Of a stretch of DNA of 64,000 bases, positions 24,943 through 51,609 are shown one piece after another; within the stretch, counting starts at the first letter, position 1, and every line of letters begins with the position of its first letter. The DNA is from Bdellovibrionales bacterium. Lineage in GTDB: Bacteria; Bdellovibrionota; Bdellovibrionia; Bdellovibrionales; UBA1609. The translations under genes were made by a program, and so were the position numbers. Where the stretch lies: the NCBI GenBank assembly GCA_050250515.1, contig JBFWON010000002.1, forward strand, positions 8,815-72,814, given 5' to 3'. The notes under the pieces were generated by a model. The model ran no database searches. It saw only the letters and a program-made list of their open reading frames with translations, and was not told where the DNA came from.

Positions 24943-25039
24943 AGGAGAACGATAAAAGGCAGTTATTTCAATATTTTACCATCTGCTTGTCGACCTGAAT
25001 AAGGAGTGGTAGGTTGGCTCCTCGTTATTTTAAGGCGAT

Positions 25040-25081
25040 AGGGAATTAGCTCAGTTGGTAGAGCGCCACCCTTACAAGGTG
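25040..25081 (+). pseudogene. 5' fragment (positions 1-42) of a split tRNA-Val(UAC); island left junction
   Basis: AGGGAAT-TA-GCTC-AGTTGGTA-GAGC-G-CCACC-CTTACAA-GGTG, after which tRNA similarity stops. Confidence 0.8.
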
Positions 25082-25216
25082 TCGCGGAAATGAATTTAGA
25101 AAAGTTCGACGACGCCAAGTTGTTGAAGTGAATTAGGAAATGAAAACAGTGATTTTTGAAAATGGTAAAAACATTTTAAGAAAAGGTAAAAAGGTAGGAA
25201 TACGTTTTATCGCAAT

Positions 25217-25292
25217 AGGGGGTTAGCTCAGTTGGTAGAGCGCCACCCTTACAAGGTGGATGTCGCAGGTTCGAGCCCTGTACCCCCTACCA
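25217..25292 (+). tRNA. tRNA-Val (anticodon UAC), intact and island-borne
   Basis: 76-nt cloverleaf folded by hand: acceptor AGGGGGT/ACCCCCT, D stem GCTC/GAGC, anticodon stem CCACC/GGTGG with loop CTTACAA, T stem GCAGG/CCTGT with loop TTCGAGC, and an encoded ACCA end. Confidence 0.9.
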
Positions 25293-25335
25293 AATTATTG
25301 AAATCACTGAGAGAATCGAAATTGAAAAAATCAAA

Positions 25336-25582
25336 AATGGTAAAAACAGTTGGTAAGATGGGTAAAGTCTTAGGATTGACGAAAAATAACGATCAGTACG
25401 AAGACGTGCCTGACGAATTGAAGTGGGCAATTCCACTCCATGAACACCTGACAAGCTCTGAAACACAAAAATGGTTTGATGAACGCAAAGCTCAGTCTGA
25501 GCAGCGTGTGCAGTTTGAGATGACTACTCGGCAGCGAGAGGCATCGAAAAAACGTCTAAAAATTCTGGCGCGTACTTTCTAA
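25336..25582 (+). CDS. possible small protein (81 aa), doubtful
   Basis: This is the internal-ATG portion of track ORF 25232..25582. The first third of that ORF is the tRNA. Its 3' end overlaps the integrase 3' end, and its 5' end coincides with the GGTAA repeats. Confidence 0.2.
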
Positions 25583-26819
25583 TATAACCCTGAGTCGTTC
25601 TGTAATCCTCATGGAGGCAGCACCTCTGCAAGAATGTGGGATTGCCTTTGTACATCTTTGCCAAATGAATCGCGCCGATTGTCGCGTAGGAATGTCGCCA
25701 ATCCAACGGTGTCAGATATTTGAATCCACACTCTTTTGCGATTCGCTTCCAGGTCTTGGCAATCTGTCCTGGCAGGTTCGGATACAAACGGTCTTTGGGG
25801 TTCAAGTGCGCCTTTAGATAGCGTGCCACTTCAGTAATGATTTCCACCGAAGGTTGTACCATAGGCACCATTATTGGCTTACCTGTTGAGGTCTTAGTTG
25901 CATCCTTCTGAGTGATAAAACCTTTTCGACCACGGCTTTGACCGCTGATTATGTTATCCCTAACGAGAAAATATGGTGTCTGTGCATCAGGAAAAAGATT
26001 TTCGGCTTTCATGCCAGCGAAGTTTCCACGGCGTAGACCAGTGATGACGCCAAAATACAGCCCGTAGGCTATGAGTTTCATCTTCGGGTTTTCTTTGTAG
26101 ATCCTGTCGATTTTTATTTTTTGATCTTCGATTTGTGCGAGCGTATAGACTTCTTCCGAACGTGAATTTTCGCTGTAATCGCGCTTTTGCTGCTCAAGCG
26201 TCAACGTCACCCAAATTTTGAACTGGTCATCTTTTGCAATGTAGTCGTACTTTTCGCAGAAAAACATAAACTGATTTATCGTGCGACAGAGAACATTGTA
26301 ACTATTGTGAGAATACTTTTCGCCGTTCCTTTTCTTCGCGGTTTTAACGTGTAACTCAGCCTTGTTTCTGAACTGTTTGAACTGCTTTGGATGGGTACAG
26401 CCCAATGAAAGGAACCACGGAAGCCAAAAGTTTCTCATGCAGTTGTGGTAGACAACGGGAATAGCAGTATCGTCTTTGAACGCTTTGAATTCTTCAAGGA
26501 CTGGTCCAAAATCAAAGTCTTTGGATTTAAGTTCAATTTTTTCCATCGCACGATAAGATGCCAGCGCGAATTGCGAACTCAGTTCTTGTTCAAGTCGATG
26601 TTTTAGTTTTTTGAATTCTGAATTTTGTTCGGCCTGCTCCTTGTGGAGTTTTTTTTCTTTGAGCAGATTATTGATTGCTTTCAAAGTTGGATGAACTTTG
26701 GCAGATATGGGAAGAGGATTGTCTTTACCCTTGGAGATAAAGGCGCGGAAGGCGTCACAGGTTTTGCCTGTTCTCCATGTAAAATACAGTCCTTCAAATG
26801 GTGAGCTACCCTTTGCCAT
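25524..26819 (-). CDS. tyrosine integrase (phage-integrase family)
   Basis: Box I GLRRGNFAGM, box II DWRHSYAT and catalytic Tyr region TTQGYIRKY. It sits adjacent to the tRNA. Confidence 0.9.
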   Translation of the reverse strand: MAKGSSPFEGLYFTWRTGKTCDAFRAFISKGKDNPLPISAKVHPTLKAINNLLKEKKLHKEQAEQNSEFKKLKHRLEQELSSQFALASYRAMEKIELKSKDFDFGPVLEEFKAFKDDTAIPVVYHNCMRNFWLPWFLSLGCTHPKQFKQFRNKAELHVKTAKKRNGEKYSHNSYNVLCRTINQFMFFCEKYDYIAKDDQFKIWVTLTLEQQKRDYSENSRSEEVYTLAQIEDQKIKIDRIYKENPKMKLIAYGLYFGVITGLRRGNFAGMKAENLFPDAQTPYFLVRDNIISGQSRGRKGFITQKDATKTSTGKPIMVPMVQPSVEIITEVARYLKAHLNPKDRLYPNLPGQIAKTWKRIAKECGFKYLTPLDWRHSYATIGAIHLAKMYKGNPTFLQRCCLHEDYRTTQGYIRKYAPEFLDVFSMPLAAE

Positions 26820-26836
26820 AGTTGTTCACCACAAGT

Positions 26837-27394
26837 TTAGTGGCTCAAACCCCTTCTTTTCATTTTTCGTCTTGCGGCTCTATTTGGCTGTAAATGAGCG
26901 GAGATGAATCCCATGCTTTGAATAACTTCCGTAAAATCAACTCTTGAATAGTCTGGCTTATTGAGAGGTTCGCCCGTTTCCAGATCATAAGTTATAAACT
27001 TACGGAATTGAGCATTGTGCTTGGCAAGAGACTCTTTGGCGACTGTAAGTGCCAACTGAGTTGCAGAAATTAAGGTTTCAATGTGAGGGCCGTCAGTATT
27101 GGCAGAGCCAAGTTGCAAGGTGCGCAGAGTTTCTAAATGTTCATGTGCTCGTCTGACCCGTGCGCTGCTTCGTGTGCCGCCAACCGATGAAAGATCACGA
27201 CGACATTCAATTGAAAGGAAATCAGTTTCCTCGATTAGCCTTTGCCATTCGTGGGCAGACAAATTTTCTCTATTTCTAAAGTGGTGAAAGGGGTAAGGCC
27301 CTGGCACTGAAGGCAGGGCGATTTCGCCAGCGTCCAATTTCTCTAACAACTCTCCGACCGTTAATTTCAAGACCTTAGTCTTTTCGTTTGCCAT
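26837..27394 (-). CDS. hypothetical protein in the repressor position
   Basis: 185 aa, divergent from the 27530 gene across an AT-rich repeat-containing region. No HTH recognised by eye. Confidence 0.45.
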   Translation of the reverse strand: MANEKTKVLKLTVGELLEKLDAGEIALPSVPGPYPFHHFRNRENLSAHEWQRLIEETDFLSIECRRDLSSVGGTRSSARVRRAHEHLETLRTLQLGSANTDGPHIETLISATQLALTVAKESLAKHNAQFRKFITYDLETGEPLNKPDYSRVDFTEVIQSMGFISAHLQPNRAARRKMKRRGLSH

Positions 27395-27529
27395 TTTTGA
27401 TCCTCATTTATTTACGCTTCGCAGCATTTACATATATTAACTTGTATTTACTATGCTAATATAGCACTACTGCGCGTTATTTACAATAATAAACTTGCAT
27501 TAACTATATATTATGGTTAAGGTACGGAT
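27395..27529. promoter_or_regulatory. AT-rich divergent promoter/operator region
   Basis: Four ATTTAC motifs. Two copies of AACTTG(T/C)ATT(T/A)ACTAT at 27439-27454 and 27492-27507. Confidence 0.45.
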
Positions 27530-27997
27530 ATGGCTGATGAAACCAAAAAAAGGGCAGGCAGAAAACAGGGCTACCCAATCACTAAGCAGCAGTTTGATGA
27601 CCTAATGGCCGCTCTTGGCGGCACCCATGAGGAAGTCGCTCGTTTGTGTGGCAAAACCCTTGGACCGCAGGCAGTTTCGTGGTGGAGGCAATCAGAGCGG
27701 ATTCCTTTTGCCCATCTAAACCGCTTGGCCTCAGAGTTGGTTCGCCAACTGCAAAGTCGTGAGCCGACCGAGATTGATAAAAGAGCACTTCAATACTTGA
27801 AGACAGCTAAAGCCCTGATGGATGCGACTGGTACTGCCGTAAGCGATCCACGGTCAGCAATTCAATTCCAACCCGAAATACAGCGCCATTCTTTAGGCGT
27901 CTCCCTAGAAGGCTTCAAATTGGAGGAGCTTGTGCAGGAGATTGAAAAACGTGGCTGGGATGTGAACTTGTCACTCCGAAAAATCGAAGGTCGCTAG
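27530..27997 (+). CDS. Cro/YdaS-like HTH protein (putative)
   Basis: The N-terminal MAALGGTHEEVARLCGKTLGPQAVSWWRQSERIP resembles the Cro/YdaS-type HTH. Confidence 0.45.
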   Translation: MADETKKRAGRKQGYPITKQQFDDLMAALGGTHEEVARLCGKTLGPQAVSWWRQSERIPFAHLNRLASELVRQLQSREPTEIDKRALQYLKTAKALMDATGTAVSDPRSAIQFQPEIQRHSLGVSLEGFKLEELVQEIEKRGWDVNLSLRKIEGR

Positions 27998-28182
27998 ACT
28001 TCAACTCTGACTGTTGGAAGCTCCCAGAAACGACAAAAATCAAAATTATTTTTTCACTCAATTTTGACAAGCAAAATTAAATAGTTACAAGCGAGCAAGT
28101 TTCGGGCGAAGCGCAAATAGCGTGTGATCTCTACGATATAAGTAAGGCGTGCAAGACAACCTTTACTTGTAAGGAGATAAAC

Positions 28183-28473
28183 ATGGCAGCACGCAATTTA
28201 ATTTCAAAGGCGGAAAAAGAAGCCGCAATTTTAGCTTTTATCCAGGCCAATGGGCTTGAGGTTGGCCTGACACAGGTTTGGCTAGATGACCTATATCCAC
28301 TATTTCTAAAGTGGCTGGAGATCAATAAATACGATTTTGCGCCAACCAAACGCAGGTTCGCGCAAACGCTGAATACGCGATTTAGAAGCGCCCACGCTTC
28401 AATTACGGAGGACGGAAAGCACACGTCAAAAAAAGTCTATTACCTGAGTAAACCAGTCGGGAATGGGGGGTAA
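28183..28473 (+). CDS. hypothetical protein
   Basis: 96-aa ORF preceded by AAGGAG. Confidence 0.45.
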   Translation: MAARNLISKAEKEAAILAFIQANGLEVGLTQVWLDDLYPLFLKWLEINKYDFAPTKRRFAQTLNTRFRSAHASITEDGKHTSKKVYYLSKPVGNGG

Positions 28474-29020
28474 TATGCTGTGGTTCAAACACTTTGCAAA
28501 TAACTCCACTCAAAACCAATCGTTTATGGGCCTTAGCAGTGAGCTTGGCGCTGAAGGCTACGGGCGTCTCATGCTTCTTATAGAGTGTCTTGTGGGCGGC
28601 GCTGATGGCATCGACAATCCACCTTCGGCAAAACTCAAAGTGAACGTCTGGGCAACGATCCTGAAATGTAAACCAAAGAAAGTGCGAACATTTCTGGAAT
28701 GTTGTCAGAACCACGGAATAATCAATTTCGTTGATCTTGAAAATGAAATCGAAGTCACTTTGCTCAACCATCGAAAACTATTAACTAAGTCAGCGTTGCC
28801 AAGTGGGAAACGGACGACCAGCGGTCAACCCGTGGGCGACCAAGAAGAGAACAGAAAAGAACAAAATTCCTCTTTCTCATCAAGCCAAAGAAACGATCAG
28901 TCCACTGGTCAAAATAATTCAGAATTAAACCAATCAACCTTTGGCTCCACCGATCAGTCGATGTCGCCAATCAACTATCAAGAATCCAAAGACATCAAAG
29001 AATTCATGTCTGGTTATTAG
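28463..29020 (+). CDS. DUF4373-like replication-associated protein
   Basis: The N-terminal LWFKHFANNSTQNQSFMGLSSELGAEGYGRLMLLIECL matches the WFKH...GxEGYG pattern of DUF4373. It lies immediately upstream of the helicase. Confidence 0.5.
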   Translation: MGGNMLWFKHFANNSTQNQSFMGLSSELGAEGYGRLMLLIECLVGGADGIDNPPSAKLKVNVWATILKCKPKKVRTFLECCQNHGIINFVDLENEIEVTLLNHRKLLTKSALPSGKRTTSGQPVGDQEENRKEQNSSFSSSQRNDQSTGQNNSELNQSTFGSTDQSMSPINYQESKDIKEFMSGY

Positions 29021-29029
29021 GAGCATTTT

Positions 29030-30412
29030 ATGTCCGACGGTTTACATGGTCATCTTCACAAACTTCTATACGGGTATAAGCAGAAGGGCCTCACTGTCGA
29101 CAAAGTTTTTACGGTTATGGATGCCACAGGAACGCACCTTTCAGGCGATCAAATAGAATGGGTAAAAGAGTTTTATCCAACAATCGAAGTAAAGAGTTGT
29201 CAGCCGCAACAGTCAGAAAAAATGAGTGAAGCGGATATAAATAAGTTTAAGGATAGCATAGCTGAAGCGGCCCAATATGAAAATCGAAAACAGGCAGTTC
29301 AAAAGATGGAACTCGATGTTCGTGAAAGCAAAGTTCAAGTTGATATTGTGAAGTACAAACAACAGCAAGAGGACATTCTGAAGTCGGACGCAGAAAGAAA
29401 GGCGGCTCAGTCCCTCAATGTTGACCAGCTTAAAGACGCCTACTTTTCTGATGCGATGACAGATCATCAAAAATATCTTGAATCTGCTAAGTATCGTTTA
29501 AGGTGTATGCTGCCGTGTTTTGACAATACGGTTCCGCTTTTTGCAAAGAACCTACTTTTGCTTGGAGCAAAGACGGGCGAAGGTAAGTCATCCACTGCCG
29601 CTCAAATTATTTACTCCGTGCTCAATCAAAATAATCCAGCCACAGGCAGACCATGTCGGGCTTTGGTGCTCACCAATGAGGAAACAATGGGTGAGGTTTA
29701 TACGAGAGTAGCCTTTCAATATAAAAAGTGGCCTTACACTCGCCTTGACGCAATATCAGAGGGTCAGCGCAAAGAAGTTTTACGTTTTCAAAACGAAATG
29801 CGAGATTCTAAACGACTTGTTGTCATCGACAATTCCTTTCCTGATATTCGACAGCCAACAACAAGCCTAGAAGGGCTGGAGCACTTTCTTGAGAGTTTGG
29901 TCAGAAACAAAAATGACTTTGATCTGATTGTTATTGATTACTTTCAAAAGATTTCTTCCTCAACGGCCCACAGAGGCGCGAGTCCTACAGATGTATTTAC
30001 CCGTGTTTGTGACATGCTTGATGACTATAGAAAAAGATTGAACTGCCCAATCGTAATTTTCGCACAATTGTATCCAAGCAATTCTGATAAGACGAATTTT
30101 GAAGACCGAATCAAAGGCCGCAAGAAAATCTTAGAGACGGCGACTTTCGCGGCTGAAATCGAACCCGATAGGGATAATTACAAAACTTACTTTCGCATCC
30201 ATAAGAACCGTCTTGTTCAAGGAACTGTAGGCACGACGGTCACTGTTGGCTTTGATCGTGAAACTGGAATGTACGTCACTTGTGATATTCCATTTCAGCA
30301 AAAAGCAAGTCAGTGGAAGCAAGACAGAAAGATAAAAGTTGCTCAAGAAGTTGTGGACAGAATTGACGATAACCTATCGGCAGCGCAGTCACCTGTTCGC
30401 AAACAATCTTAG
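29030..30412 (+). CDS. DnaB/RepA-like P-loop replicative helicase
   Basis: Walker A GAKTGEGKSS and Walker B-like LIVIDYFQKI. A coiled-coil N-terminal extension of about 170 aa. Confidence 0.7.
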   Translation: MSDGLHGHLHKLLYGYKQKGLTVDKVFTVMDATGTHLSGDQIEWVKEFYPTIEVKSCQPQQSEKMSEADINKFKDSIAEAAQYENRKQAVQKMELDVRESKVQVDIVKYKQQQEDILKSDAERKAAQSLNVDQLKDAYFSDAMTDHQKYLESAKYRLRCMLPCFDNTVPLFAKNLLLLGAKTGEGKSSTAAQIIYSVLNQNNPATGRPCRALVLTNEETMGEVYTRVAFQYKKWPYTRLDAISEGQRKEVLRFQNEMRDSKRLVVIDNSFPDIRQPTTSLEGLEHFLESLVRNKNDFDLIVIDYFQKISSSTAHRGASPTDVFTRVCDMLDDYRKRLNCPIVIFAQLYPSNSDKTNFEDRIKGRKKILETATFAAEIEPDRDNYKTYFRIHKNRLVQGTVGTTVTVGFDRETGMYVTCDIPFQQKASQWKQDRKIKVAQEVVDRIDDNLSAAQSPVRKQS

Positions 30413-30447
30413 AGTAAGAAGATGCACTCCCACTAAAGGCGGAAAAA

Positions 30448-30912
30448 ATGAAAGCTCTATATCATCAAGGTCAACAATACCCTACACAAGACACTGAAGC
30501 AGGTCTGAACTATATTGAAATCGAAGTCTCTGGGCCGACAGGTCAATGGGTAAAAACAAAAGCCCTAATCGACACGGGTGCAAATGTTACTTCGGTCACA
30601 GCGGCACTTGTAGAACAGCTAGGAGTCGATGACGTATTGCCGTACTTAGGCGATCAACTTTTGGAAACGGCGAATGGCGACGTTGCGGAACCGACAACGA
30701 AAGTGAACATTCGCATCCTTGGTACAGATGGAAATTACACGCTTCTCCAAGACTGGCCCGTGACAATAATCCGCAAAATGAATGAACCGATTCTAGGTCT
30801 TGATATTCTGCAATTTTATTCAGCCCAATTGAAGCACGGCCAGATAGTCAGCATGGTTTTTGATGAAACTGGCCCAAGTGCAATTCAAAAGCGAAAGCAG
30901 ATCCAAGGCTAA
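30448..30912 (+). CDS. retropepsin-like (clan AA) aspartic protease
   Basis: Active-site motif ALIDTGANVTSV and flap/dimer motif ILGLDIL. 154 aa. Confidence 0.7.
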   Translation: MKALYHQGQQYPTQDTEAGLNYIEIEVSGPTGQWVKTKALIDTGANVTSVTAALVEQLGVDDVLPYLGDQLLETANGDVAEPTTKVNIRILGTDGNYTLLQDWPVTIIRKMNEPILGLDILQFYSAQLKHGQIVSMVFDETGPSAIQKRKQIQG

Positions 30913-30972
30913 ATACTCCCCAGCCTTTATTCCAGCCTAATACAGGTATTGTCTCGCTAGACCTTTACGATT

Positions 30973-32028
30973 TTGGTCGTAAATCCGAATAGTAGCGCGG
31001 TGAAACGAAGCAGAACAAAACAATCAAATAACGGCACCGATGAAAGCCTGATAAAGGTTCAACATCGACTTAAAGCCGTCAAGAATCCTGAAGCTGCCAA
31101 GATTGATGACTACAGCAATCGACTTGATGACCTTTATTTGGATTTTTTGGCGCACGAAACAAAAGGCGTTGCCAGTCAAATCGAAAGAAATGTCGCCAGG
31201 TTTATGAGGCCGCTTTTTGAGCAAGCGGCGAATAAACTCAATATAGTGATTGGTAATACAAAGGAAACTTTTCGCCTTTATTCTGAGATTTACTTGTTTA
31301 TTTCCACTTTCATTAAAACTCACGGACATAAAAGCAAAAAAGCTCCGCCGCTGGATGAAATCAAAAACCAAGTTAAAGAGTTTCTGTTTTGGAGAGATTT
31401 GGAGCCAAAGCTAATCCACTATTGGTCCTTAGAGTTCGCAGACAAACCGTTTGTCATACCAGATGATCGACAAGAATTTTATCAACGCTATGGACTCAAT
31501 CGCCAAAATTATTCGATTAAAGATCGACTAAGAGAGGTTGAATACAGCGCCAAAGGTTTGTTAGGCGTAGATGCAACTTGTACTGTTGGCAAACGAATCA
31601 TTTTCTCTGTTGAACATCCCGATGTATTTCACGCGGATTTGGCAATCATTCCTATCATTTCTGAAATGAAGGAAAAAGGCATTGATGTGGAGCTAGTGCG
31701 CGGTGCTTATAAATACGAAGGCGGCAAATACAAGGGGAACGTCATCGAAGAGATTTCTCTGCTATGCCATTTTAGCACTGACGAACAGAAGATTTTGATT
31801 TTAGACTGGCTTGAACCATTTGGTCAGGAAAGTTATCTCTATCTTGCCGAGGATGGCCTTACAACTTCGATTAAAATTTCAAATGGTGAGCGCACTGAAT
31901 ATGGTTATTGGACAAAGGTTCAATCCATTTCCAAAGAATCTCTGCAAGAGGGACAAGGGTTTTCGATTCTGAATGGCGAATGTTTCCAAGCGATTCAAAA
32001 GTCTGCTTCAAGCCTTAAAGCGGCCTAA
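30973..32028 (+). CDS. hypothetical protein
   Basis: 351-aa ORF with no motif recognised. Confidence 0.45.
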   Translation: MVVNPNSSAVKRSRTKQSNNGTDESLIKVQHRLKAVKNPEAAKIDDYSNRLDDLYLDFLAHETKGVASQIERNVARFMRPLFEQAANKLNIVIGNTKETFRLYSEIYLFISTFIKTHGHKSKKAPPLDEIKNQVKEFLFWRDLEPKLIHYWSLEFADKPFVIPDDRQEFYQRYGLNRQNYSIKDRLREVEYSAKGLLGVDATCTVGKRIIFSVEHPDVFHADLAIIPIISEMKEKGIDVELVRGAYKYEGGKYKGNVIEEISLLCHFSTDEQKILILDWLEPFGQESYLYLAEDGLTTSIKISNGERTEYGYWTKVQSISKESLQEGQGFSILNGECFQAIQKSASSLKAA

Positions 32029-32035
32029 ATCAAAA

Positions 32036-32059
32036 TCCGTGAGCCAGTTGGCCCACGGA
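32036..32059. terminator. hairpin between convergent genes
   Basis: TCCGTG-A-GCC-AGTT-GGC-C-CACGGA, lying between the stops at 32028 and 32077. Confidence 0.4.
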
Positions 32060-32076
32060 CCTACATAGTCTTGCTT

Positions 32077-32718
32077 TTAGTAAAGTACGTCTTGCAACAT
32101 CACACTGAACTGGCCTCCAGGTATTTGACAATTTTCCCAGCTATCATCCATCTTTTGGCACTTCATTGTTTGAGCGGTGTAACATGAGCCGCCTTGAAGC
32201 CAAGCTACTTTGAAACTTGTGTACTCCCCTGAATTGTTCGGAGTCGTGACAATGTGATAGGTATTCCCTGAAGTTGTGTTCAAAAAATTCGGCAGATACC
32301 AAACAAAAGTTCGATCACTACAGCACATTGATCCGAAGGTATCGGTTTTGTCAAAGTAGTTGGACGCATTGGCGGTCGCCAACAGAATTCCGGGATCTCC
32401 GCCAGCGTCGTCATAGATAGAAACTGTCTGGCCGCTTGGATAATAAATACCCGTGATGACCGCGCCAATTTTTGATTGGTTGACCGTAATTGGTTGAGCA
32501 AATCTTTTGTACTGAACGCCAAACGAATGGTTGGCTCCCTGATAACTCATGGCACAGCCATACATGAAGTTATAGGTACGCCAGTCCGTGGACATGGGCG
32601 GAGTGCTGTCGCCAGGATCTTCACCAATACTTGGTGAGCTTCCCGATCCTCCGCTACACGAAAGAAGCGTGAGCGACAAAAGAACGCCTGAAAATACCTT
32701 GATTTTTGAATGTATCAT
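32077..32718 (-). CDS. lipoprotein, unknown function
   Basis: Signal peptide plus lipobox LLSLTLLSCSGG. Confidence 0.55.
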   Translation of the reverse strand: MIHSKIKVFSGVLLSLTLLSCSGGSGSSPSIGEDPGDSTPPMSTDWRTYNFMYGCAMSYQGANHSFGVQYKRFAQPITVNQSKIGAVITGIYYPSGQTVSIYDDAGGDPGILLATANASNYFDKTDTFGSMCCSDRTFVWYLPNFLNTTSGNTYHIVTTPNNSGEYTSFKVAWLQGGSCYTAQTMKCQKMDDSWENCQIPGGQFSVMLQDVLY

Positions 32719-32835
32719 TTCGATACCCCTTTCTTGCGGTGTGCGACATGCACACCGTCTGGAAAGAAATATCGGCTTGAAAGACCTAGACCTTATTGAG
32801 ACGGCTTCAGGTCCAATAGAACGCGCTTATAATTT

Positions 32836-35568: not shown

Positions 35569-35587
35569 ATTCCCTCCATTGGCGATT

Positions 35588-36559
35588 TTATTCGCCGCAT
35601 TTGACGTACACTTTATCCATTCGTTTTATTGCGTAAACATCTTGAAACGTGAAATCACATGCAGGAGGATTCGTAGCTTTCTCCACACTGAAGTTTAGGG
35701 CGATGCAACGACACATACTGCTTTCTGCGCTAGGATTTCGTTGGGCGCTCACAGTCGTTGCACTGTACTCAAGCGCCGCCTTGCATGTGGCAATGAAGTT
35801 GGCTTGCGCTTTGTCTTCTGGACAACCAGACGGTTGTTTGTCATTGGAGCCAGATAACCAACCCTTTACCTTGTCCATCATGCCAGGGCTTTTTGCGTTG
35901 TCGTTATTGGCAGTTTTTTGAGGAGCCGCTTGCTGTTGTGGTACAAGGTTTGTCACGTCGGGAAGTTGGGGAAGCGTTGACGCCACGGGTTTGTCTTGCT
36001 TGCCAAAGAAAACCCCTTCAATCATGTTCCTGGCACCTTTGACATCTTGTACGCTTGGGTTTGCCTGCGCGTACTGAGTCATCAGTGAATCCGCTTTGGT
36101 TTTTTCCGATGCCGAATAATTTTTGATGCAATAGGCGCTCATCTCCATTGGAGTTTCGGAGGTCATTTGATTGATAAGACAGTCAACTGCGACGCTTTTG
36201 TCTTTCTTGTCGTATTGATACTTTGTATCGAGATAGCCTTCCTTTTCGGATTTCATGCAGTGGGCGACCATTTCATAGTTGACGGTGTCTCGCTTGGTCC
36301 ACTTCTTAAAACAATTCGGACCTGACATATTCTCAAACCAGTTCTTGCCCTTGAATTCGTTTTGAATGGCTTTTATTTCGGCAATGCCTGCCGTTTGTCG
36401 CTTCAGACAATGGGTGTACATCTGTTCGTCTAGCGAACCCGACTTAGTCCACTCGTCTTTGCAAAGCTGTTTGATTTGGTCCGTGCCTTGGGCATGGGCC
36501 AATGAGAGAAAAAGAAAAGAAAAAATCATCACTGTAAATGACTTAGTTTTGCTTCTCAC
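35588..36559 (-). CDS. secreted Cys-rich repeat protein
   Basis: Signal peptide FSFLFLSLAHAQG. Three Cys-bracketed repeats of about 25 aa. GTGA overlap with the HTH gene. Confidence 0.5.
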   Translation of the reverse strand: MRSKTKSFTVMIFSFLFLSLAHAQGTDQIKQLCKDEWTKSGSLDEQMYTHCLKRQTAGIAEIKAIQNEFKGKNWFENMSGPNCFKKWTKRDTVNYEMVAHCMKSEKEGYLDTKYQYDKKDKSVAVDCLINQMTSETPMEMSAYCIKNYSASEKTKADSLMTQYAQANPSVQDVKGARNMIEGVFFGKQDKPVASTLPQLPDVTNLVPQQQAAPQKTANNDNAKSPGMMDKVKGWLSGSNDKQPSGCPEDKAQANFIATCKAALEYSATTVSAQRNPSAESSMCRCIALNFSVEKATNPPACDFTFQDVYAIKRMDKVYVKCGE

Positions 36560-36867
36560 TTGTGGCCTCCCGTCTTCACTTTCTTTATGGTGATTTCGTA
36601 AAGGCCCGTGTGGATTTCTGTCTTTTCAAGTATATCGCCAAGGATTCCTCGCGGATCTTCCTCCCCGAAAAGCAGAGAATGTGTTGAGCAATTAAAGAAC
36701 TGCGCAAGGCGTTTCAATACATCGAGGTCGCGTGGAATTCTGCCGTGTGGACCAAGCCACTCTTGAACGGTTTTCGGAGGGCAATTGATGGCCTTTGCCA
36801 GTTGAGAAACTGACAAATTGCGTTCGCTCATCAATTGCTTTAAGACTTCACCAAAAGTTTTAGTCAT
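36556..36867 (-). CDS. XRE-family HTH transcriptional regulator
   Basis: HTH region LSVSQLAKAINCPPKTVQEWL. I moved the start to ATG 36867 because the track start at 37026 lies inside the operator/promoter repeat. Confidence 0.65.
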   Translation of the reverse strand: MTKTFGEVLKQLMSERNLSVSQLAKAINCPPKTVQEWLGPHGRIPRDLDVLKRLAQFFNCSTHSLLFGEEDPRGILGDILEKTEIHTGLYEITIKKVKTGGHK

Positions 36868-36979
36868 ACTATCTATAAATCGGCTGAAAAATCGCCGCCT
36901 TTGAACCCTTTCTCGCTTCTCATCCACAATGGATGACAGTTCATCGCGCTTGGCTGAAATATCAGCCAGGCTTAGACAT

Positions 36980-37008
36980 ATAATATAACGCTTTGCATAA
37001 TTAGGCAA
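36980..37008 (-). promoter_or_regulatory. leftward sigma-70-like promoter for the XRE/lipoprotein operon
   Basis: On the minus strand: TTGCCT (37008-37003), a 17-nt spacer, then TATTAT (36985-36980). The -35 overlaps the left inverted repeat. Confidence 0.45.
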
Positions 37009-37035
37009 TCGAATTTTGATATTCAAAATTAGTGT
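37006..37035. repeat. left copy of a 30-bp inverted repeat (operator-like)
   Basis: CAATCGAATTTTGATATTCAAAATTAGTGT. Its reverse complement matches 37362-37391 with one mismatch. The core is the palindrome AATTTTGA-N3-TCAAAATT. Confidence 0.85.
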
Positions 37036-37043
37036 CTCAATTT

Positions 37044-37072
37044 TTGACTAACGAATTCCGATAAGCTAATAT
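37044..37072 (+). promoter_or_regulatory. strong sigma-70-like promoter for the 87-aa ORF
   Basis: TTGACT (37044-37049), a 17-nt spacer, then TAATAT (37067-37072). Confidence 0.5.
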
Positions 37073-37083
37073 AAGGCAAAAGG

Positions 37084-37347
37084 ATGTATGGAATGAAAAA
37101 GACAAAAAGCGAAGCTGATCCCAGAAAGTACGCTAACTTTCAATTTGCTTTTAGAGTGAAGGACAAAGAGGTTTTGGAGTCACTTCAGATTGAATTAGAA
37201 GATCTCTATAGCAAGTTCAATAAAGGCCGCGATCCTAAAAATCCAAAAGGCGTGAGGGCTGTTAAGATGAACGACATTGCCTTAAAAGCTCTTAGAATAG
37301 GTCTTCAGGAAGTAAAGAAAATGAGGGCTTGGGAATTCGACGAATAA
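37084..37347 (+). CDS. hypothetical small protein (87 aa)
   Basis: ORF enclosed by the inverted repeats. Lys/Glu-rich with no motif. Confidence 0.45.
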   Translation: MYGMKKTKSEADPRKYANFQFAFRVKDKEVLESLQIELEDLYSKFNKGRDPKNPKGVRAVKMNDIALKALRIGLQEVKKMRAWEFDE

Positions 37348-37361
37348 CGATTTATTTTGAT

Positions 37362-37391
37362 ACACTAATTTTGAATATCAAAATTTGATTG
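37362..37391. repeat. right copy of the 30-bp inverted repeat
   Basis: ACACTAATTTTGAATATCAAAATTTGATTG. Confidence 0.85.
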
Positions 37392-37417
37392 ACTAAATAT
37401 ATGCTCTGCGTTATCCT
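37389..37417 (+). promoter_or_regulatory. rightward sigma-70-like promoter
   Basis: TTGACT (37389-37394), a 17-nt spacer, then TATCCT (37412-37417). The -35 overlaps the right inverted repeat in the mirror-image layout of the leftward promoter. Confidence 0.4.
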
Positions 37418-37457
37418 GTACTCAGATGCTCAAGATTGATTGAGCTAGGAGGACAAG

Positions 37458-37760
37458 ATGAAAGATGCACAGTTAGCCAAAGAACTTATCGAGGTTATTG
37501 AACAGCGTAAACGTCTTGATAAGCGTGAGTCAGACCTCAAAGACCTTTTCAAAATCAAAATGACCAATCAAGGAATCAATACCCTGACCTTGGGTAATGT
37601 CCTTGTTTCATTAGTGCAAAAGAGCCGCACGGCTCTGGACAAGAAAGCACTCGTTACCGCATACGGTGAAGAGGTGGTCAGTCAATTCGAGAAAGTTACC
37701 GAGTATATTCAGGTTGATGTAAAAGACGAGTCAGTCACCGATAGCAAGAAAGCTGCTTAA
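37458..37760 (+). CDS. hypothetical protein (100 aa)
   Basis: ORF preceded by AGGAGG. Confidence 0.45.
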   Translation: MKDAQLAKELIEVIEQRKRLDKRESDLKDLFKIKMTNQGINTLTLGNVLVSLVQKSRTALDKKALVTAYGEEVVSQFEKVTEYIQVDVKDESVTDSKKAA

Positions 37761-37771
37761 TTGGTGATGCG

Positions 37772-38071
37772 ATGAAAAATACTTCGATTGCTCAAAAGAA
37801 TGACCTTTTAAGAAAATCCTTCTCTGGCTGTCGGGTTATGCTGACGGCTGGAGTTGCCGATAGTGAAAAGCAAACTCAAATCTTAGATGCGGTTAAGTCA
37901 TTCCACCAATTTACCGAAGACAATGATCCATATGGTGAGCATGACTTTGCTTTCTTAGAGGTCAACGGTGAGAAGTTCTTTTTCAAGTTCGACTATTACG
38001 ACAGCAATTATGAATTCTTCCAAGAAGACGGCAACAGAGTTCTCACGATTGGTCGGGCCGACGAGTATTGA
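37772..38071 (+). CDS. DUF3768-family protein
   Basis: FTEDNDPYGEHDFAFLEVNGEKFFFKFDYYD matches the NDPxGEHDFG...KIDYYD signature of DUF3768. Confidence 0.6.
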   Translation: MKNTSIAQKNDLLRKSFSGCRVMLTAGVADSEKQTQILDAVKSFHQFTEDNDPYGEHDFAFLEVNGEKFFFKFDYYDSNYEFFQEDGNRVLTIGRADEY

Positions 38072-38313
38072 GGGACAACTTTTGGAAAAATTATTTTTAA
38101 TTTTACCTATTCATTTTTATGGGAAAAAAGTGGCGCAGAAAAATTCTGACGGGAACCCTGCGCCTGAATATGAAAGAGCTAGGTCGAAAGGAAATGTCCA
38201 AAACCCCGATAGCCCGATTTTGCTAGGACCTGTTATTTTGGTTTTGGCAGAGGCTAGAGGGTAAACCAAAATTTCGCAGAATACCCAAGAAAGCGAAGTT
38301 TTAGAGGTTCAGG

Positions 38314-39069
38314 ATGAGAACGAAGGATCAAAACAAGGTCGTAAACATTGAGAATTTCGTTGCCAAAAGTGGTAAAGCGAAATCGCCAATACAGCTTTTA
38401 ATCAAAGCAATAGCGCGAAGTGTGAATCAGCATAAGATCCAATACGACCAACTCCGCTACGTCTTCAAGGCCGTGCGCCAACACTGTGAGCTTGAAGCTC
38501 CGAACCGTGGGCAAAAACTGTATGAGCTTCCCACAGAGGACGAGATGAGCCGCTTCTTTGGCGTTATCGAAAACCCTGTGCATCGGCTTATCTTTGAATT
38601 CTTGGATGGGAGCGGCTTGCGAGTCGCGGAGCTTTGTAATCTCGAAGTGAGTCGGATCGACTTTAAGAATAACACAGTCTTTGTCAAAGAAGGAAAGGGC
38701 CGCAAGGATCGAATGACCATTGTTGGGAATCGCTTGTTAGAAAAGATCCGCCTCTATTTGGACGGTCGGAAAAACCGCTATCTGTTTGAAAGCAATCGTC
38801 ACACTCGCTTTACCACAAGGCGAATTGAACAACTCTGCAAGCGGTATAAGGACCTTGCAGGTATTGAGCGCGACATAACCCCTCACACTTTTAGACACCG
38901 TTGGAACACGCGGCTTGCTGAAGGCGGCGTGAGCCGTGAGGGACGAGAAATACTGGCAGGTCACTCAAAAGGATCGGCGACGCAGGACATTTACACGCAC
39001 TTGGGCGTTGGCGGAATGAAGGATGAGGTCATAGCCATTCTTGATAAAAAAGATCAAGTTTCACGATGA
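38314..39069 (+). CDS. XerC/D-like tyrosine recombinase (251 aa)
   Basis: Motifs GLRVAELCNL, HTFRHRW, LAGHS and QDIYTHL, which together give the R, HxxR, H and Y catalytic set. Confidence 0.85.
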   Translation: MRTKDQNKVVNIENFVAKSGKAKSPIQLLIKAIARSVNQHKIQYDQLRYVFKAVRQHCELEAPNRGQKLYELPTEDEMSRFFGVIENPVHRLIFEFLDGSGLRVAELCNLEVSRIDFKNNTVFVKEGKGRKDRMTIVGNRLLEKIRLYLDGRKNRYLFESNRHTRFTTRRIEQLCKRYKDLAGIERDITPHTFRHRWNTRLAEGGVSREGREILAGHSKGSATQDIYTHLGVGGMKDEVIAILDKKDQVSR

Positions 39070-39339
39070 CGGCAGTCGGTATCTGAACGGATCTTGTTTC
39101 GTTCCTTGGCCAATCTTAATCACTGAGCCTGTTTCAAGCAAATACCGCAAAACTGCGATGAATCGCTTTCGACGGATGCGTGTCAGCTTTTGAAGTTGGT
39201 CACGGGTTGGACTTCCTGGCCTGGCTAGTTCCAAAATCGCCATTACGATGTGGAAATGGCTGTCATATCGCTTTTTTCCACGCGGCAAAGTCAATAAACG
39301 CTGACTGGCTTCGGGCAAATTCAGATTTGTTTCTTTCAT
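39061..39339 (-). CDS. possible winged-helix DNA-binding protein
   Basis: 92 aa, with ...FIAVLRYLLETGSVIKIGQG.... Converges on the recombinase with a 9-nt overlap. Confidence 0.35.
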   Translation of the reverse strand: MKETNLNLPEASQRLLTLPRGKKRYDSHFHIVMAILELARPGSPTRDQLQKLTRIRRKRFIAVLRYLLETGSVIKIGQGTKQDPFRYRLPSS

Positions 39340-39533
39340 GGTTTACCTCACTCATAAGACAAAGATTGTGGCCGTTCCCCTCACTTCAAAGGACCAAACG
39401 GGATTTTGCCCATAGGCCGTGTATGAGGCGTCCAAACCACGTTTTTTGCCCGTTCCGCTCAGAGTGAGTCCCTTTCGTTCCATTGTTTCAAGGTCATGGC
39501 CCTGAATCTTTAGGGGGAGCAGGAGACTAAACT

Positions 39534-39947
39534 ATGGACCAAAATGGAAACGACGTACTGAGTGAGATTTTTAGAAGGCGAGCCGCTGGGGAGATTACCC
39601 ACGGAGAAGCACTGCACGAATTAGCAGAATTGCGGCGAGCGCAGGACCGCGCCGAGGTCGAAGCAAGACGCTTAGGTCAACCAATCCATCATATTAGGCA
39701 ACAAGCTGTTGAGGAGCCAAAGCCAGCACCCCAAGCTCAATCGGTTGAACGAGTGCCATCATTCACTGAGGATGAGATTTTTTTGACCAGTGCAGAGGCG
39801 GCAAAGCTGCTTGGGTATGGCAGCGAGAAAAGTTTCAGGAATGCAGTAGCGGCAGGCAAAATCCCTCATTACAAGTTGATGGGGAACCAAAACCGATTCA
39901 AGAAAACTGAGATGCTGGCACTTCTCGTTCGAGTTGAACCTAAATAG
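39534..39947 (+). CDS. excisionase/AlpA-like HTH protein
   Basis: The C-terminal FLTSAEAAKLLGYGSEKSFRNAVAAGKIPHYKL resembles the excisionase-family HTH. Confidence 0.55.
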   Translation: MDQNGNDVLSEIFRRRAAGEITHGEALHELAELRRAQDRAEVEARRLGQPIHHIRQQAVEEPKPAPQAQSVERVPSFTEDEIFLTSAEAAKLLGYGSEKSFRNAVAAGKIPHYKLMGNQNRFKKTEMLALLVRVEPK

Positions 39948-39992
39948 TTCAGTCAAATCACTTTGACTTGTAGCGCCTATCGAAGTGAACCT

Positions 39993-40223
39993 TTATTTGA
40001 AAAGGTCTTTGGGTTCAATCTTGAGGACATGGCAAATTCTAGAAATCGTTCGTAAAGTTAGATTTTGTTTACCAGACTCAAATCGTTGCCAAACACGCGG
40101 CTCAAAGCCTTCCACCTGTTCTTGCGTCAGCCCACGCGCTTTTCGCGCTGTCTGAATGTTCAAAGCAACTTGCCTTGATAGTTTTTCGAGCCGTTTTTCT
40201 TCGGCGGTTGATCTTTTTCCCAC
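39993..40223 (-). CDS. XRE-family HTH regulator (76 aa)
   Basis: HTH region ARKARGLTQEQVEG...QRFESGKQNLTLRTISRICHVL. Confidence 0.75.
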   Translation of the reverse strand: MGKRSTAEEKRLEKLSRQVALNIQTARKARGLTQEQVEGFEPRVWQRFESGKQNLTLRTISRICHVLKIEPKDLFK

Positions 40224-40238
40224 CGTTTAAGTGTATTT

Positions 40239-40303
40239 ACGACCATTTATACAGCCCACGACCGTATAAGGTCGTATTTTCCGTGACGACCTTGAAAGGT
40301 CGG
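40239..40303. promoter_or_regulatory. operator cluster between the divergent XRE genes
   Basis: ACGACC-N6-GGTCGT at 40258-40275 and ACGACC-N6-GGTCG at 40286-40302. An extra ACGACC half-site lies at 40239-40244. Confidence 0.55.
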
Positions 40304-40375
40304 GATAAAATGCCGTGATATATTTGCGGAAACGCCTTGCGTTGTTGTTTGGCGTTCCTAAACAGAGGTCGATCA

Positions 40376-40735
40376 ATGGCGGGAAGAGTGCTCCCAAAAG
40401 AACTTGCGGTAAAGCTAGGCGTCTATATCCGCCAAGGCAGAACTGCGCGAAGACTATCTTTAGAGGCGGCGGCAGATCGTGCAGGAGTTTCTATCGAGAA
40501 AATCGTCGCCATCGAATCAGGCGACGGAGCAATCACTGATGTTGAGGTGCAAATCTGTGCAGCTAGGTATGGTGACGTAAGAGCTATTGAAATTGATATG
40601 CTCATTCGTAAATGGGCCTACGCTGAAATGCACCGCGAAGAGATGACCAAACGACGAAAGCATCTGTCTATTGTTGGGCACGATCCGAAGCCGTGGGAGC
40701 GAGGAGCCTTTGCTTCAAGTGCTAATTGTCGATGA
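40376..40735 (+). CDS. XRE-family HTH regulator
   Basis: ATG at 40376 follows AGAGG. HTH region RTARRLSLEAAADRAGVSIEKIVAIESG. Confidence 0.65.
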   Translation: MAGRVLPKELAVKLGVYIRQGRTARRLSLEAAADRAGVSIEKIVAIESGDGAITDVEVQICAARYGDVRAIEIDMLIRKWAYAEMHREEMTKRRKHLSIVGHDPKPWERGAFASSANCR

Positions 40736-41075
40736 CAACGCTGATTATTGTTGCCTGCTATCCAAAACACTAGAGCAGCGTATCCATGCTCATACTACTT
40801 CGGTTTTGTCTGGAAAACTCGCCATTGAAGCCCTAAGAGTCGGCAAATTCGATGTAATGATCTGCGATTTTGAAATGCCAGGGATGAACGGCTTCGATGT
40901 ATTTCAGGCGATGATTGCCGAGGACTTGTTTTGCCCATTCTTGCTGTACACAAATGCCGACCTCAGTCGGCTACCCAGATTTGAAGGCCCTGGTTTTCTC
41001 GGCATCGTCAAGAAAATGGAGGCTGAAAAGCTATTCAAGCATTTGGACCTTTTGATACTGAAAGGCAGCGACTAG
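40710..41075 (+). CDS. stand-alone response-regulator receiver (CheY-like)
   Basis: Motifs VLIVDDN and DVMICDFEMPGMNG. The start is uncertain: TTG at 40710 or GTG at 40719, after GAGGAG. No output domain. Confidence 0.7.
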   Translation: MLQVLIVDDNADYCCLLSKTLEQRIHAHTTSVLSGKLAIEALRVGKFDVMICDFEMPGMNGFDVFQAMIAEDLFCPFLLYTNADLSRLPRFEGPGFLGIVKKMEAEKLFKHLDLLILKGSD

Positions 41076-41147
41076 AGCGTCAAAGTTGGAGGTCGCTACC
41101 ATTTTCTACCAAGTGCAGGTTAGAATTTCAGAACGAAAGCAGGGAAA

Positions 41148-41459
41148 ATGATTTTTCAATGGTTCAACAAAAGTTTGGATAAGGAAAAGGAACAAACAAA
41201 AGAGCGACTTGTCGCCGTTCTGGACAAAGAAATCAATAGCATCAAGAGTTCGATCCAAAACACACCATCAGACCGAATCGGCCAAAAGGATGAGTTGCAT
41301 AAACTGATGGCGAGTTTGATAGTGCGAAAAGCCTTAGCTGAATTTGAATCCGAAGAAATAATCAAAAAAAGAATGGATATGCGAGTCTCGTTTTTTGCGC
41401 TTGTGATGAGCAGTCTATCCCTGTTGTTTTCCATTGCCACATTCATAGCTCGGCGTTGA
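41148..41459 (+). CDS. hypothetical C-terminally membrane-anchored protein
   Basis: 103 aa with a C-terminal TM (FFALVMSSLSLLFSIATFIA). Confidence 0.4.
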   Translation: MIFQWFNKSLDKEKEQTKERLVAVLDKEINSIKSSIQNTPSDRIGQKDELHKLMASLIVRKALAEFESEEIIKKRMDMRVSFFALVMSSLSLLFSIATFIARR

Positions 41460-41466
41460 GGGAAGC

Positions 41467-42138
41467 GTGGAATTTTGGGAGGGACTGAAAATGAACCCGT
41501 TTGATGCAGAACTGTTCAACATCTTTAAGAGCCACAATCCCAATGTAAAACCAGAAGACGTAACAAAGTGGAGTGCAAGTCATTCACAGTGGGCTTCTAG
41601 AAACTATCTTCGGTCTGCGCAGTGGATTGATTCGACACTAAGGCACCTCGATAAGCAATTGGGCGACGTTGACGTTGAGAAGTTCATTATAAATGTTTAT
41701 GGCATCGCCCTTGACCTGCCTGACTTTGTGGAAAAGAAGACCAAATTTTTTGGGATGCTTGGTTTTTCCAGCCATTCAGAAGTCAGAAAATATGTTGTCA
41801 GGCAACTTCGTGATCGAGGGATGCAGATTCACATTTTACAATTGCTCCAACTCGATGAGGTTCTTTCGGAGTTTATCGAGAAGACCTTCTCTGTGGAGGA
41901 GCTTTTCGCAACGGCCTTTTACCGCAATAGCTATTGTCACCCGTCGCTATCGGCTTACACGGTCAAACTGTCCTCAAAAAAGAAAGGTGTTAAGTTCGAT
42001 CCAGCGAAGTACGAAGCGTTTTTGCAATTACAACCGTATGACGAACTGGATTTGTGCAAGACCATATATGAAAAACTAAATCAAAATCGTAATGCCCTGA
42101 ACAGAATCAAGGATCTGCTCATGGCTTTAAGGGGGTAA
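41467..42138 (+). CDS. hypothetical protein (223 aa)
   Basis: ORF with no motif. An alternative ATG lies at 41491. Confidence 0.45.
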   Translation: MEFWEGLKMNPFDAELFNIFKSHNPNVKPEDVTKWSASHSQWASRNYLRSAQWIDSTLRHLDKQLGDVDVEKFIINVYGIALDLPDFVEKKTKFFGMLGFSSHSEVRKYVVRQLRDRGMQIHILQLLQLDEVLSEFIEKTFSVEELFATAFYRNSYCHPSLSAYTVKLSSKKKGVKFDPAKYEAFLQLQPYDELDLCKTIYEKLNQNRNALNRIKDLLMALRG

Positions 42139-42142
42139 GCCT

Positions 42143-42544
42143 ATGGACTTGATAGAATCTCTTTTTCAAAAGTCTGGCAAAACGGAGAGTGATTTAATCA
42201 AGACCGCCGACGAAATCATGTCGCTATCCCAAGAAAATCCGACCTTCAAGAGAGGCAAGCGCCTCATGGATATGATGAATTTTCTTGAGCAGGCGGTGAT
42301 CGGGCCAGAGCATATCAATGACGAGAACCACTCTGATGCTCGACAGTTGATTCAGGACGAAAGAAAGATCCTTTCAGACCAAATGATGCACTGGACACTT
42401 TCGTCAAATTTTACCAAGGAAGAATTGGTCGCCTGGCTTAAACGGTACTATGCCATTGACTATTACGCTCGGCATTTTCGACTTGGAGATGAGTTCTTTG
42501 CGGCCATAACAGGGCAGGCAAAGAAGCGGTCCACCCAACACTAG
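42143..42544 (+). CDS. hypothetical protein (133 aa)
   Basis: ORF beginning 4 nt after the previous stop. Confidence 0.45.
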   Translation: MDLIESLFQKSGKTESDLIKTADEIMSLSQENPTFKRGKRLMDMMNFLEQAVIGPEHINDENHSDARQLIQDERKILSDQMMHWTLSSNFTKEELVAWLKRYYAIDYYARHFRLGDEFFAAITGQAKKRSTQH

Positions 42545-42725
42545 GCAATCAAAAGATCCAGGGCCGCTCAATCCAAAAGCGGTCGTTCCATAGACATATG
42601 ATATAGGCAGTAGAGAAGCCAAAATCGGCCTTCCTGCGCCGCCTTTTACCTTCTCCCTTCAAAACCTAACACGCCATGACGCGCAATGACCGCGTTCCTC
42701 AATCCCATTTATAAAAGAGTCTAAC

Positions 42726-42786
42726 TTGGTAGAGCGCCACCCTTACAAGGTGGATGTCGTCGGTTCGAGCCCGGCATTCCCTACCA
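42726..42786 (+). pseudogene. 3' fragment (positions 16-76) of the split tRNA-Val(UAC); island right junction
   Basis: TTGGTA-GAGC-G-CCACC-CTTACAA-GGTGG-ATGTC-GTCGG-TTCGAGC-CCGGC-ATTCCCT-A-CCA. The acceptor 3' strand pairs with AGGGAAT at 25040. Confidence 0.85.
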
Positions 42787-42875
42787 ATCGTCAGGCTGTT
42801 CAAACCGGCTCTTTTTCGCTGTTCAGGTGTGGGCCCCTCAAGCTATGACTTGCGGAAACTTTACGAGGGGTGATT

Positions 42876-43229: not shown

Positions 43230-43323
43230 AATTTAGACACCCGAGCAAGAGTCTCAACTTGAGACGCTCTTTCGTATCATCGATGTAACGCGACGGCGAC
43301 TGCCTTTGTAGTAGAGTGAAGAG

Positions 43324-51606: not shown

Positions 51607-51609
51607 ATA

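Follow-up and report, generated by a model that had tools for sequence, protein, structure and literature searches.

We analysed a 64,000-nt stretch of DNA from a Bdellovibrionales bacterium (assembly GCA_050250515.1, contig JBFWON010000002.1, positions 8,815 to 72,814), hereafter the window, in which a 17.7-kb genomic island interrupts the tRNA-Val(UAC) gene of the host and carries a complete tRNA-Val(UAC) gene of its own. To the left of the island, the window has the gene order tig-clpP-clpX-lon, followed by a gene for a TPR/Trans_reg_C regulator (23283-24428). The features at the two ends of the island are as follows.

25040-25081, forward strand: 5' fragment of the host tRNA-Val(UAC) gene, positions 1-42, with the acceptor 5' strand AGGGAAT; it holds core C1 (25055-25081)
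25082-25216, forward strand: spacer S, the first element-derived sequence and a putative integrase arm-site region, conserved across hosts
25217-25292, forward strand: complete element-borne tRNA-Val(UAC) gene (the inner tRNA), allele B (AGGGGGT/ACCCCCT); it holds core C2 (25232-25258)
25293-25357, forward strand: region after the inner tRNA, starting TTGAAATCAC, a second arm-like region and the leader of a small open reading frame (ORF), with repeats at 25339 and 25352
42726-42786, forward strand: 3' fragment of the host tRNA-Val(UAC) gene, positions 16-76, with the end ATTCCCT-A-CCA; it holds core C3 (42726-42752)

The 27-nt core TTGGTAGAGCGCCACCCTTACAAGGTG was present in exactly three copies on the forward strand of the window, starting at 25055, 25232 and 42726, as had been counted in a sequence-only reading of this locus. 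When the window was shuffled (n=100), no copy of the core was obtained even with three mismatches allowed. The two outer copies lie in fragments that equal tRNA positions 1-42 and 16-76 and fit together. The in-silico join of 25040-25081 with 42753-42786 gave 76 nt, and it was called as tRNA-Val(tac) by ARAGORN. For comparison with other hosts, one genome per species was scanned for the 3' half of either allele (that of the host fragments or that of the inner tRNA), which yielded 28 loci, nearly all from Bdellovibrionales, Bdellovibrionaceae or Pseudobdellovibrionaceae metagenome-assembled genomes (MAGs). The joined gene was identical over 76/76 positions to the native tRNA-Val(UAC) gene of 18 related MAG loci. 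The 5' fragment is the same as positions 1-42 of the intact native gene in these 18 loci, and the 3' fragment matched the native gene of related MAGs at 61/61. In 14 of the 18 loci with an identical tRNA, the gene follows a homologue of the regulator gene 23283-24428. This identity, together with the upstream synteny, indicates that the two fragments are the halves of the native gene of this lineage, as the sequence-only reading had proposed. Its statement that the left junction is not rebuilt also held, since host positions 1-42 run there into non-tRNA sequence; the 5' fragment left behind is predicted to be non-functional. The further statement that all stems pair perfectly was correct in that both tRNA-Val alleles are internally compensated, but not in the strict Watson-Crick sense, because each T stem contains one G-U pair.

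No further decayed tRNA-Val fragment was detected in the window at up to 20% mismatch. A 73-nt tRNA called by ARAGORN at 42714-42786 was rejected as a pseudo-call on the 3' fragment; it was not reported by Rfam. The GC content was 0.39-0.49 over 25-43 kb, against about 0.50-0.54 outside. It was already 0.45-0.48 in the two host genes to the left of the junction (23000-25040), and therefore, composition alone would misplace the left boundary of the island.

The inner tRNA was called as tRNA-Val(tac) by ARAGORN and scored 71.6 bits against the Rfam tRNA family. The tRNA and the spacer are conserved with the integrase across hosts, and the proposal that the island supplies a second, intact allele is thereby supported. 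The inner tRNA differs from the joined host gene at 8 positions (5, 6, 50, 51, 63, 65, 67 and 68). It would be expected to supply the tRNA-Val(UAC) function of the cell. Allele B is the native tRNA-Val gene of another lineage (L017), whose native tRNA is a plausible source of the element-borne gene.

The order of 5' fragment, spacer and full tRNA was also found in SG_bin7 (locus L004), JAEUWF01 (L030), GFS_7426 (L014) and JANXMF01 (L013), and in a more distant example, JBDHWW01 (L031). The 5' fragments across the hosts were of the types AGGGAAT, AGGAGCT, AGGGAGT and AGGGGGT, and the sequences upstream of them were unrelated between hosts. Specifically, the fragment was AGGGAAT in the window, AGGAGCT in L004 and AGGGAGT in L030. 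From position 43 on, these three loci shared the spacer (133-135 of 135 positions) and the inner tRNA (76/76), and their int genes had about 80% DNA identity. The spacer of the window was identical to that of L004 at 133/135, of L030 at 135/135 and of L014 at 122/135 positions, whereas the host flanks were unrelated. The anatomy and its recurrence, as well as the junction of host-specific with element-specific sequence, were thus observed directly in several hosts. The left junction bears the signature of a site-specific recombination joint: a boundary as sharp as this points to site-specific recombination at a core that had the spacer behind it instead of a tRNA 3' half.

The spacer contains the repeats GGTA(A/G)(A/G)A at 25164, 25185 and 25193, which are putative arm-type sites of the integrase, and its 3' end doubles as the upstream region of the inner tRNA. 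An inverted GGTAAAA is located at 42644, about 80 nt ahead of the right-end core. The spacer and the region after the inner tRNA have AAAATGGTAAAAACA..TAAG..GGTAAA in common, at +77 and +75, respectively, from the end of the core, and the score of this shared block was reached by 0 of 1000 shuffles. The shared motif varies by lineage yet stays shared within each (GGTAAAA; TTGGTAGAGT; TTGGTAGAAA with TTGAGATCAC; and ATGGCGAGA). As regards a possible heterobivalent (lambda-type) integrase system, the repeats around the cores co-vary by lineage, and the model of the integrase has three N-terminal beta strands. The spacer looks like a degenerate duplicate of one half of a classical attachment site, i.e., a tRNA 3' half with its arm region, in which the tRNA part would have decayed and the spacing and the arm-type sites would have been kept. 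In the reconstructed site of right end, core and spacer, a weak residual similarity to tRNA was seen, and ARAGORN detected the inner tRNA only; that this junction forms a pseudo-tRNA is speculation. The sequence TTGAAATCAC after the tRNA was considered as a marker of the element, and it was found not to be diagnostic alone, since it is also present after the tRNA of L015, which is apparently native.

From these observations, we propose that the island is an integrative element of a small Bdellovibrionales clade of tyrosine integrases, which integrates by splitting the host tRNA gene and replacing it, and we assign this reading a probability of about 0.7. The attachment site of the element would keep only the D-loop-to-anticodon-arm core of tRNA-Val(UAC) (positions 16-40/42), flanked on one side by the right end of the island and on the other by the 135-nt spacer with its arm-type repeats. 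A crossover between this core and the host gene, most probably within the anticodon stem-loop, would separate the host gene into a dead 5' part (1-42), to which the spacer is attached, and a dead 3' part (16-76) at the opposite end of the island; the complete tRNA-Val(UAC) gene 135 nt inside the left junction would supply the lost function. Such a site could have originated when an attachment-site half was duplicated, one copy becoming the recombination site and the other remaining a gene with its own 5' end. A crossover in the T loop was ruled out for this element, the displaced fragment being of the host type at positions 50-51. When the 5' half of a non-B host gene was combined with the 3' half of the element gene, one or two mismatches arose in the acceptor stem, and this was the case for all four non-B host types. 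Carrying a whole tRNA likely frees the element from the need to match the acceptor stem of its host, and the removal of this constraint fits the presence of the element in hosts of three acceptor types.

A different origin of the spacer would be a remnant of a tandem array, in which two classical elements integrated in succession and the left one was reduced to its attachment-site half, its regenerated tRNA having decayed. The resemblance of the spacer to a decayed tRNA 3' half with an arm region fits this idea, and arrays at tRNA genes are known (PMC4383910). However, classical arrays stack 3' fragments, not 5' fragments, and the second copy should lack positions 1-15, but is complete. Decay in place would also give no sharp boundary at positions 40-42 like that seen in nine loci, where 42/42 identity turns into no similarity, and the supposedly decayed part is conserved between hosts, so that it moves with the element. 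We consider this explanation quite improbable.

The layout was not restricted to the closest sister islands. Besides the window, eight loci of the integrase clade have a 5' fragment (1-40/42), a spacer of 135-155 nt, a full tRNA, the small ORF and an integrase. The target is tRNA-Val(UAC) in L031, L041 and L043, the integrases of the latter two being 46% identical to that of the window. It is tRNA-Gly(GCC) in L033 with its copies and in L045, and tRNA-Gly(CCC) in L048 (Ga0182031_1220464, 446-1017 in coordinates of the reverse complement). In L048, two 5' fragments of tRNA-Gly(CCC), which differ in their acceptor and anticodon stems, are stacked, and each has TTGGTAGA repeats after it; next in order are the small ORF, the full tRNA-Gly(CCC) and the integrase. 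This locus looks like the product of two successive split-and-replace integrations, because stacked, differing 5' fragments are predicted by serial split and replace, not by classical integration. For the Bdellovibrionota integrase clade as a whole, we see an even chance that it works by obligate split and replace with a pseudo-tRNA attachment site. An artefact of assembly or binning at the repeated tRNA sequence could be suspected, as short-read contigs do stop at the core, within which L001 and L060 terminate, and the discrepancy between L033 and L035, described below, could be a chimeric join. Against this, the same architecture was present in many independent assemblies from NCBI, JGI and ENA, on contigs of up to 598 kb, and we regard an artefact as extremely unlikely.

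The closest relatives of the window (L003, L005, L008, L009, L012, L018, L021 and L027), in which the neighbouring TPR protein is 71-80% identical to that of the window, have an intact tRNA-Val gene and no spacer-like sequence. The genes just to the right of 42786 (42870-46860) had no homologue in the 28 genome loci, and the ORFs of the window to the right of 42.7 kb matched other loci only from about 48.8 kb, mostly in 60.9-64 kb. The region 42787-61000 is non-syntenic yet holds genes of the housekeeping type, e.g., a histidyl-tRNA synthetase-like gene (50242-51606). In more distant relatives, the tRNA is directly followed by homologues of the window genes in 60.9-64 kb. By gene order, the locus downstream of tRNA-Val appears to be a hot spot of rearrangement or insertion.

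Two loci have the left end without an integrase or an island body. L014 (GFS_7426, JAYUEB010000051, 2193-2447) has the fragment, the spacer and the tRNA, which abut a host-like flank. L013 (JANXMF010000101, 6403-6725) has the fragment, the spacer and a foreign tRNA-Val; its A-type fragment and pure B-type tRNA precede a short arm remnant, after which lies the host gene for a protein with a SEC-C motif. The sequence-only reading had held that island-free genomes with the fragment and the tRNA in tandem would speak against it. Such tandems exist in these two loci, but the agreement is superficial, since L014, with 49% identity in the neighbouring protein, comes from a distant host, L013 still has the arm remnant, and the close relatives have the intact gene and no spacer. 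We read L014 and L013 as probable independent insertions that later lost the island; the loss looks like inner-site or homologous recombination, by which the foreign tRNA was left behind. This suggests horizontal replacement of the host tRNA allele.

As the three cores are identical, excision could proceed through either of two pairs. In the split-and-replace reading, it would use the outer pair and restore the host gene. Because no excision products were seen, the use of this pair is something that we infer. An imprecise deletion of the island would take an essential tRNA with it, at a cost to the cell if this is the sole tRNA-Val(UAC) gene.

The following observations weigh against the split-and-replace reading. 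Neither a circle junction (right end, core and spacer) nor an excision scar was found; the exact junction of right end and core had zero matches in viral and metagenome contigs, and the spacer motif had zero in viral contigs. An empty site with both flanks conserved was not found, the right flank being non-syntenic with any relative. The promoter scan detected no sigma-70 consensus promoter upstream of either tRNA copy. The window shows 64 kb of the genome, so that a second tRNA-Val(UAC) gene may be present elsewhere. The comparative data come almost entirely from MAGs or metagenome contigs. Some relatives have no 5' fragment: in L066 with L020, the full tRNA stands beside the host flank and the 16-76 fragment elsewhere, and L035 (ERZ27293400 k141_897881) likewise has no 5' fragment. 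The element of L035 matches that of L033 (PEZS01000016), with zero mismatches over 11,555 nt. L033 has the 5' fragment, the spacer and the full tRNA-Gly, whereas L035 has only the full tRNA-Gly beside the host flank, and this tRNA is of the host type at positions 27, 28, 42 and 43, where it differs from that of L033. A simple site-specific event does not account for L035; the difference may stem from an assembly chimera or from homologous recombination by way of the tRNA. Finally, the inner tRNA with its arm-like region resembles a classical left attachment site, and recombination could take place between the inner and the right-end cores. Excision by these two cores would leave the fragment, the spacer and a chimeric tRNA, and the fragment-spacer-tRNA unit of L014 joined to a host-like flank fits recombination at the inner core or homologous recombination.

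Several of these points favour a classical integration at the inner tRNA, in which the active cores are those of the inner tRNA (25217-25292) and of 42726, and the element carries positions 16-76 and regenerates the gene. The 5' fragment and the spacer (with the first 15 nt of the inner tRNA) would then be a resident scar or a hitch-hiking module of 177 bp. In agreement with this, the inner tRNA, with arm-like repeats after it, is 231 nt away from int, as a classical left attachment site would be; L014 and L013 retain fragment, spacer and tRNA without the island; L066 with L020, and L035, lack the 5' fragment beside their full tRNA; and the chimera of the inner tRNA 5' half with the displaced 3' half still pairs, by means of two G-U pairs. 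Classical integration fails, however, to explain why host-specific fragments are joined at positions 40-42 to a spacer that is 98-100% identical across hosts. In every host, the joint itself calls for one or more recombination events at a core with the spacer behind it. Furthermore, it is the 5' fragment, and not the inner tRNA, whose pairing with the displaced 3' half is perfect, and in several lineages, the spacer and the adjacent element vary together in their motifs. We therefore judge this alternative to be unlikely, though it is the one to which we give the most weight after split and replace.

Islands in tRNA and tmRNA genes of the classical kind were reportedly treated by Williams in 2002. 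In classical islands, the attachment site contains a fragment of the tRNA, by which the gene is made whole again upon integration (Hudson et al. 2015, PMC4383910). Of the 3919 islands in Islander, the displaced fragment is the 3' one in 3760 and the 5' one in 159, and island-finding software relies on this rule of target restoration (PMC4383910). Tycheposons follow the same target-restoring paradigm. The present element resembles P4-like and Islander-type islands in its tyrosine integrase, its anticodon-arm core, its displaced 3' fragment and the position of the integrase beside an intact tRNA. In terms of the Islander definition, a tyrosine recombinase lies within the island, direct repeats from the target tRNA bound it (25055 and 42726), and the displaced 61-nt fragment is at the far end. 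The element thus has the integrase, the repeats and the displaced fragment of a tRNA island and does not restore its target at the outer left junction, which also applies to the eight other loci of the clade with this layout, although the verdict on restoration depends on which core is active. Classical islands restore the gene at the junction, whereas the intact gene here is a separate full copy that has its own 5' end and lies 135 nt inside, and a 5' fragment remains in addition to the 3' fragment. In a search of the Islander type, the inner tRNA and the 3' fragment would probably be taken for an ordinary island, and the present arrangement would be overlooked. The islands that displace a 5' fragment (159/3919, PMC4383910) are similar in that an intact tRNA gene is preceded by a 5' fragment of the target. 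In those islands, however, fragment and gene are separated by the entire island and the gene is a chimera of host and element, whereas here 135 nt lie between, the gene is wholly the element allele, and a 3' fragment is also present.

Compensation for a disrupted target has a parallel at a protein gene. SXT/R391 elements integrate at the 5' end of prfC; the target is disrupted, the element supplies replacement sequence and the function is kept. SXT supplies a new 5' end and a promoter, fused to the host protein gene, whereas the element of the window supplies a whole, independent tRNA gene. The attachment region of phage HP1 comprises an extended sequence of a tRNA operon, and the site of Mx8 comprises tandem tRNA genes; both phages regenerate the target at the junction. 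To our knowledge, neither of them leaves a dead 5' fragment that is compensated by a separate gene. In a full-text literature search of incomplete coverage, no description was found of an unrepaired split of a tRNA gene compensated by a complete element-borne tRNA.

In the split-and-replace reading, the rule that an island restores the gene that it splits is broken repeatably, the cut being left unrepaired and a complete spare gene being delivered. If this is true, it represents a second answer to the difficulty that an essential gene poses as an integration target, and it would explain how one element uses hosts with differing tRNA acceptor stems. It would also provide a route by which essential tRNA genes are replaced horizontally, as well as a kind of addiction to the island without a toxin, in which the island or its tRNA module becomes indispensable to the cell. 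Current island finders would mis-describe such elements, and the uncharacterised clade would offer new compact attachment sites and integrases.

The integrase gene and the small ORF lie between the inner tRNA and the island body.

25524-26819, reverse strand: tyrosine integrase of 431 aa, from a small divergent clade, recognised by a weak PF00589 match, catalytic residues and fold
25358-25582, forward strand: conserved small ORF of 74 aa, counted from the second ATG, with the motif DVPDxLKWAIP; an upstream ATG is at 25337

The match of the integrase to PF00589 had an E-value of 1.2e-5 and 25.6 bits, against a gathering cutoff of 27.1. In an alignment of 26 homologues, R263, H376, H403 and Y412 were invariant and K309 was conserved. 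The AlphaFold model, with a predicted local distance difference test (pLDDT) score of 84, matched the integrases of Tn1549, XerA, XerH and lambda and contained the three N-terminal beta strands mentioned above. Judging from the catalytic residues and the tyrosine-recombinase fold of the model, the integrase looks intact. The clade has just 31 representatives at E<=1e-30 among 1.84 billion sequences, no sequence match was found in the PDB, in plasmids or in phages (the last by tblastn against 50,697 records), and it is a clade without a characterised member. Relatives with 43% identity in L068 (ERZ2854929 NODE_612) and on the contig of P0033 stand at the end of gene sets like those of integrative and conjugative elements (ICEs), with TraC, TrbI, FtsK-like and DNA methylase genes, and the clade is therefore not tied to a single kind of element. 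L068 contained no tRNA within 10 kb.

The small ORF is convergent with int and overlaps its 3' end, and it is kept between tRNA and int in nine loci that target Val or Gly. It had no match in Pfam or PHROG. It is a candidate for a directionality factor or a regulator; the HTH_17 protein (39534-39947) is the other candidate for a directionality factor.

The remainder of the island contains the following features.

26837-39980: island body, described by domain matches; from int to about 37 kb, the gene order is common to L030
29030-30412: DnaB-like helicase
30448-30912: retropepsin-like ORF (gag-polyprotein aspartyl protease)
38314-39069: second, short tyrosine recombinase, 251 aa (PF00589, 1e-31)
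39534-39947: HTH_17 protein
39981-42725: right-end module, with HTH_31, a receiver domain, three ORFs and the putative left arm of the attachment site

HTH regulators and a DUF3768 protein are additionally encoded in the island body. With Pfam, no type IV secretion gene, coupling protein or relaxase was found in the island of the window, which does not class it as an ICE. No capsid or virion genes were found, and among ten proteins scanned with PHROG, the sole functional match was the DnaB-like helicase. A scan of viral contigs with two DNA patterns gave no match, and the island does not qualify as a prophage or a phage satellite.

The final bases before the right-end core are ...AAAAGAGTCTAAC, and CTAAC precedes the right-end core in L020 too. 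The region 39981-42755 was 87-94% identical to the Logan contig L060. The island is a mosaic: the left neighbour of the right-end module in L060 is a pyrophosphatase gene, not the rest of the island. The right-end protein 41467-42138 had only four homologues, none of them on the sister-island contigs L030 and L004.

The retropepsin-like ORF, also present in the sister island L030, is an unusual cargo for a bacterial integrative element. An inverted repeat of 21 nt (37533-37553 / 39996-40016) brackets the second recombinase and the HTH_17 protein, and the homology to the otherwise unrelated contig L060 begins at 39981, at the right arm of this repeat. From this arrangement, the segment 37533-40016 may be a nested mobile or invertible segment. 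Another inverted repeat, of 44 nt with 91% complementarity (36997-37040 / 37357-37400), brackets an ORF of 87 aa (37084-37347), which adjoins a Cro/C1-type HTH gene (36556-37026). This repeat could serve as a pair of operators or as an invertible switch.

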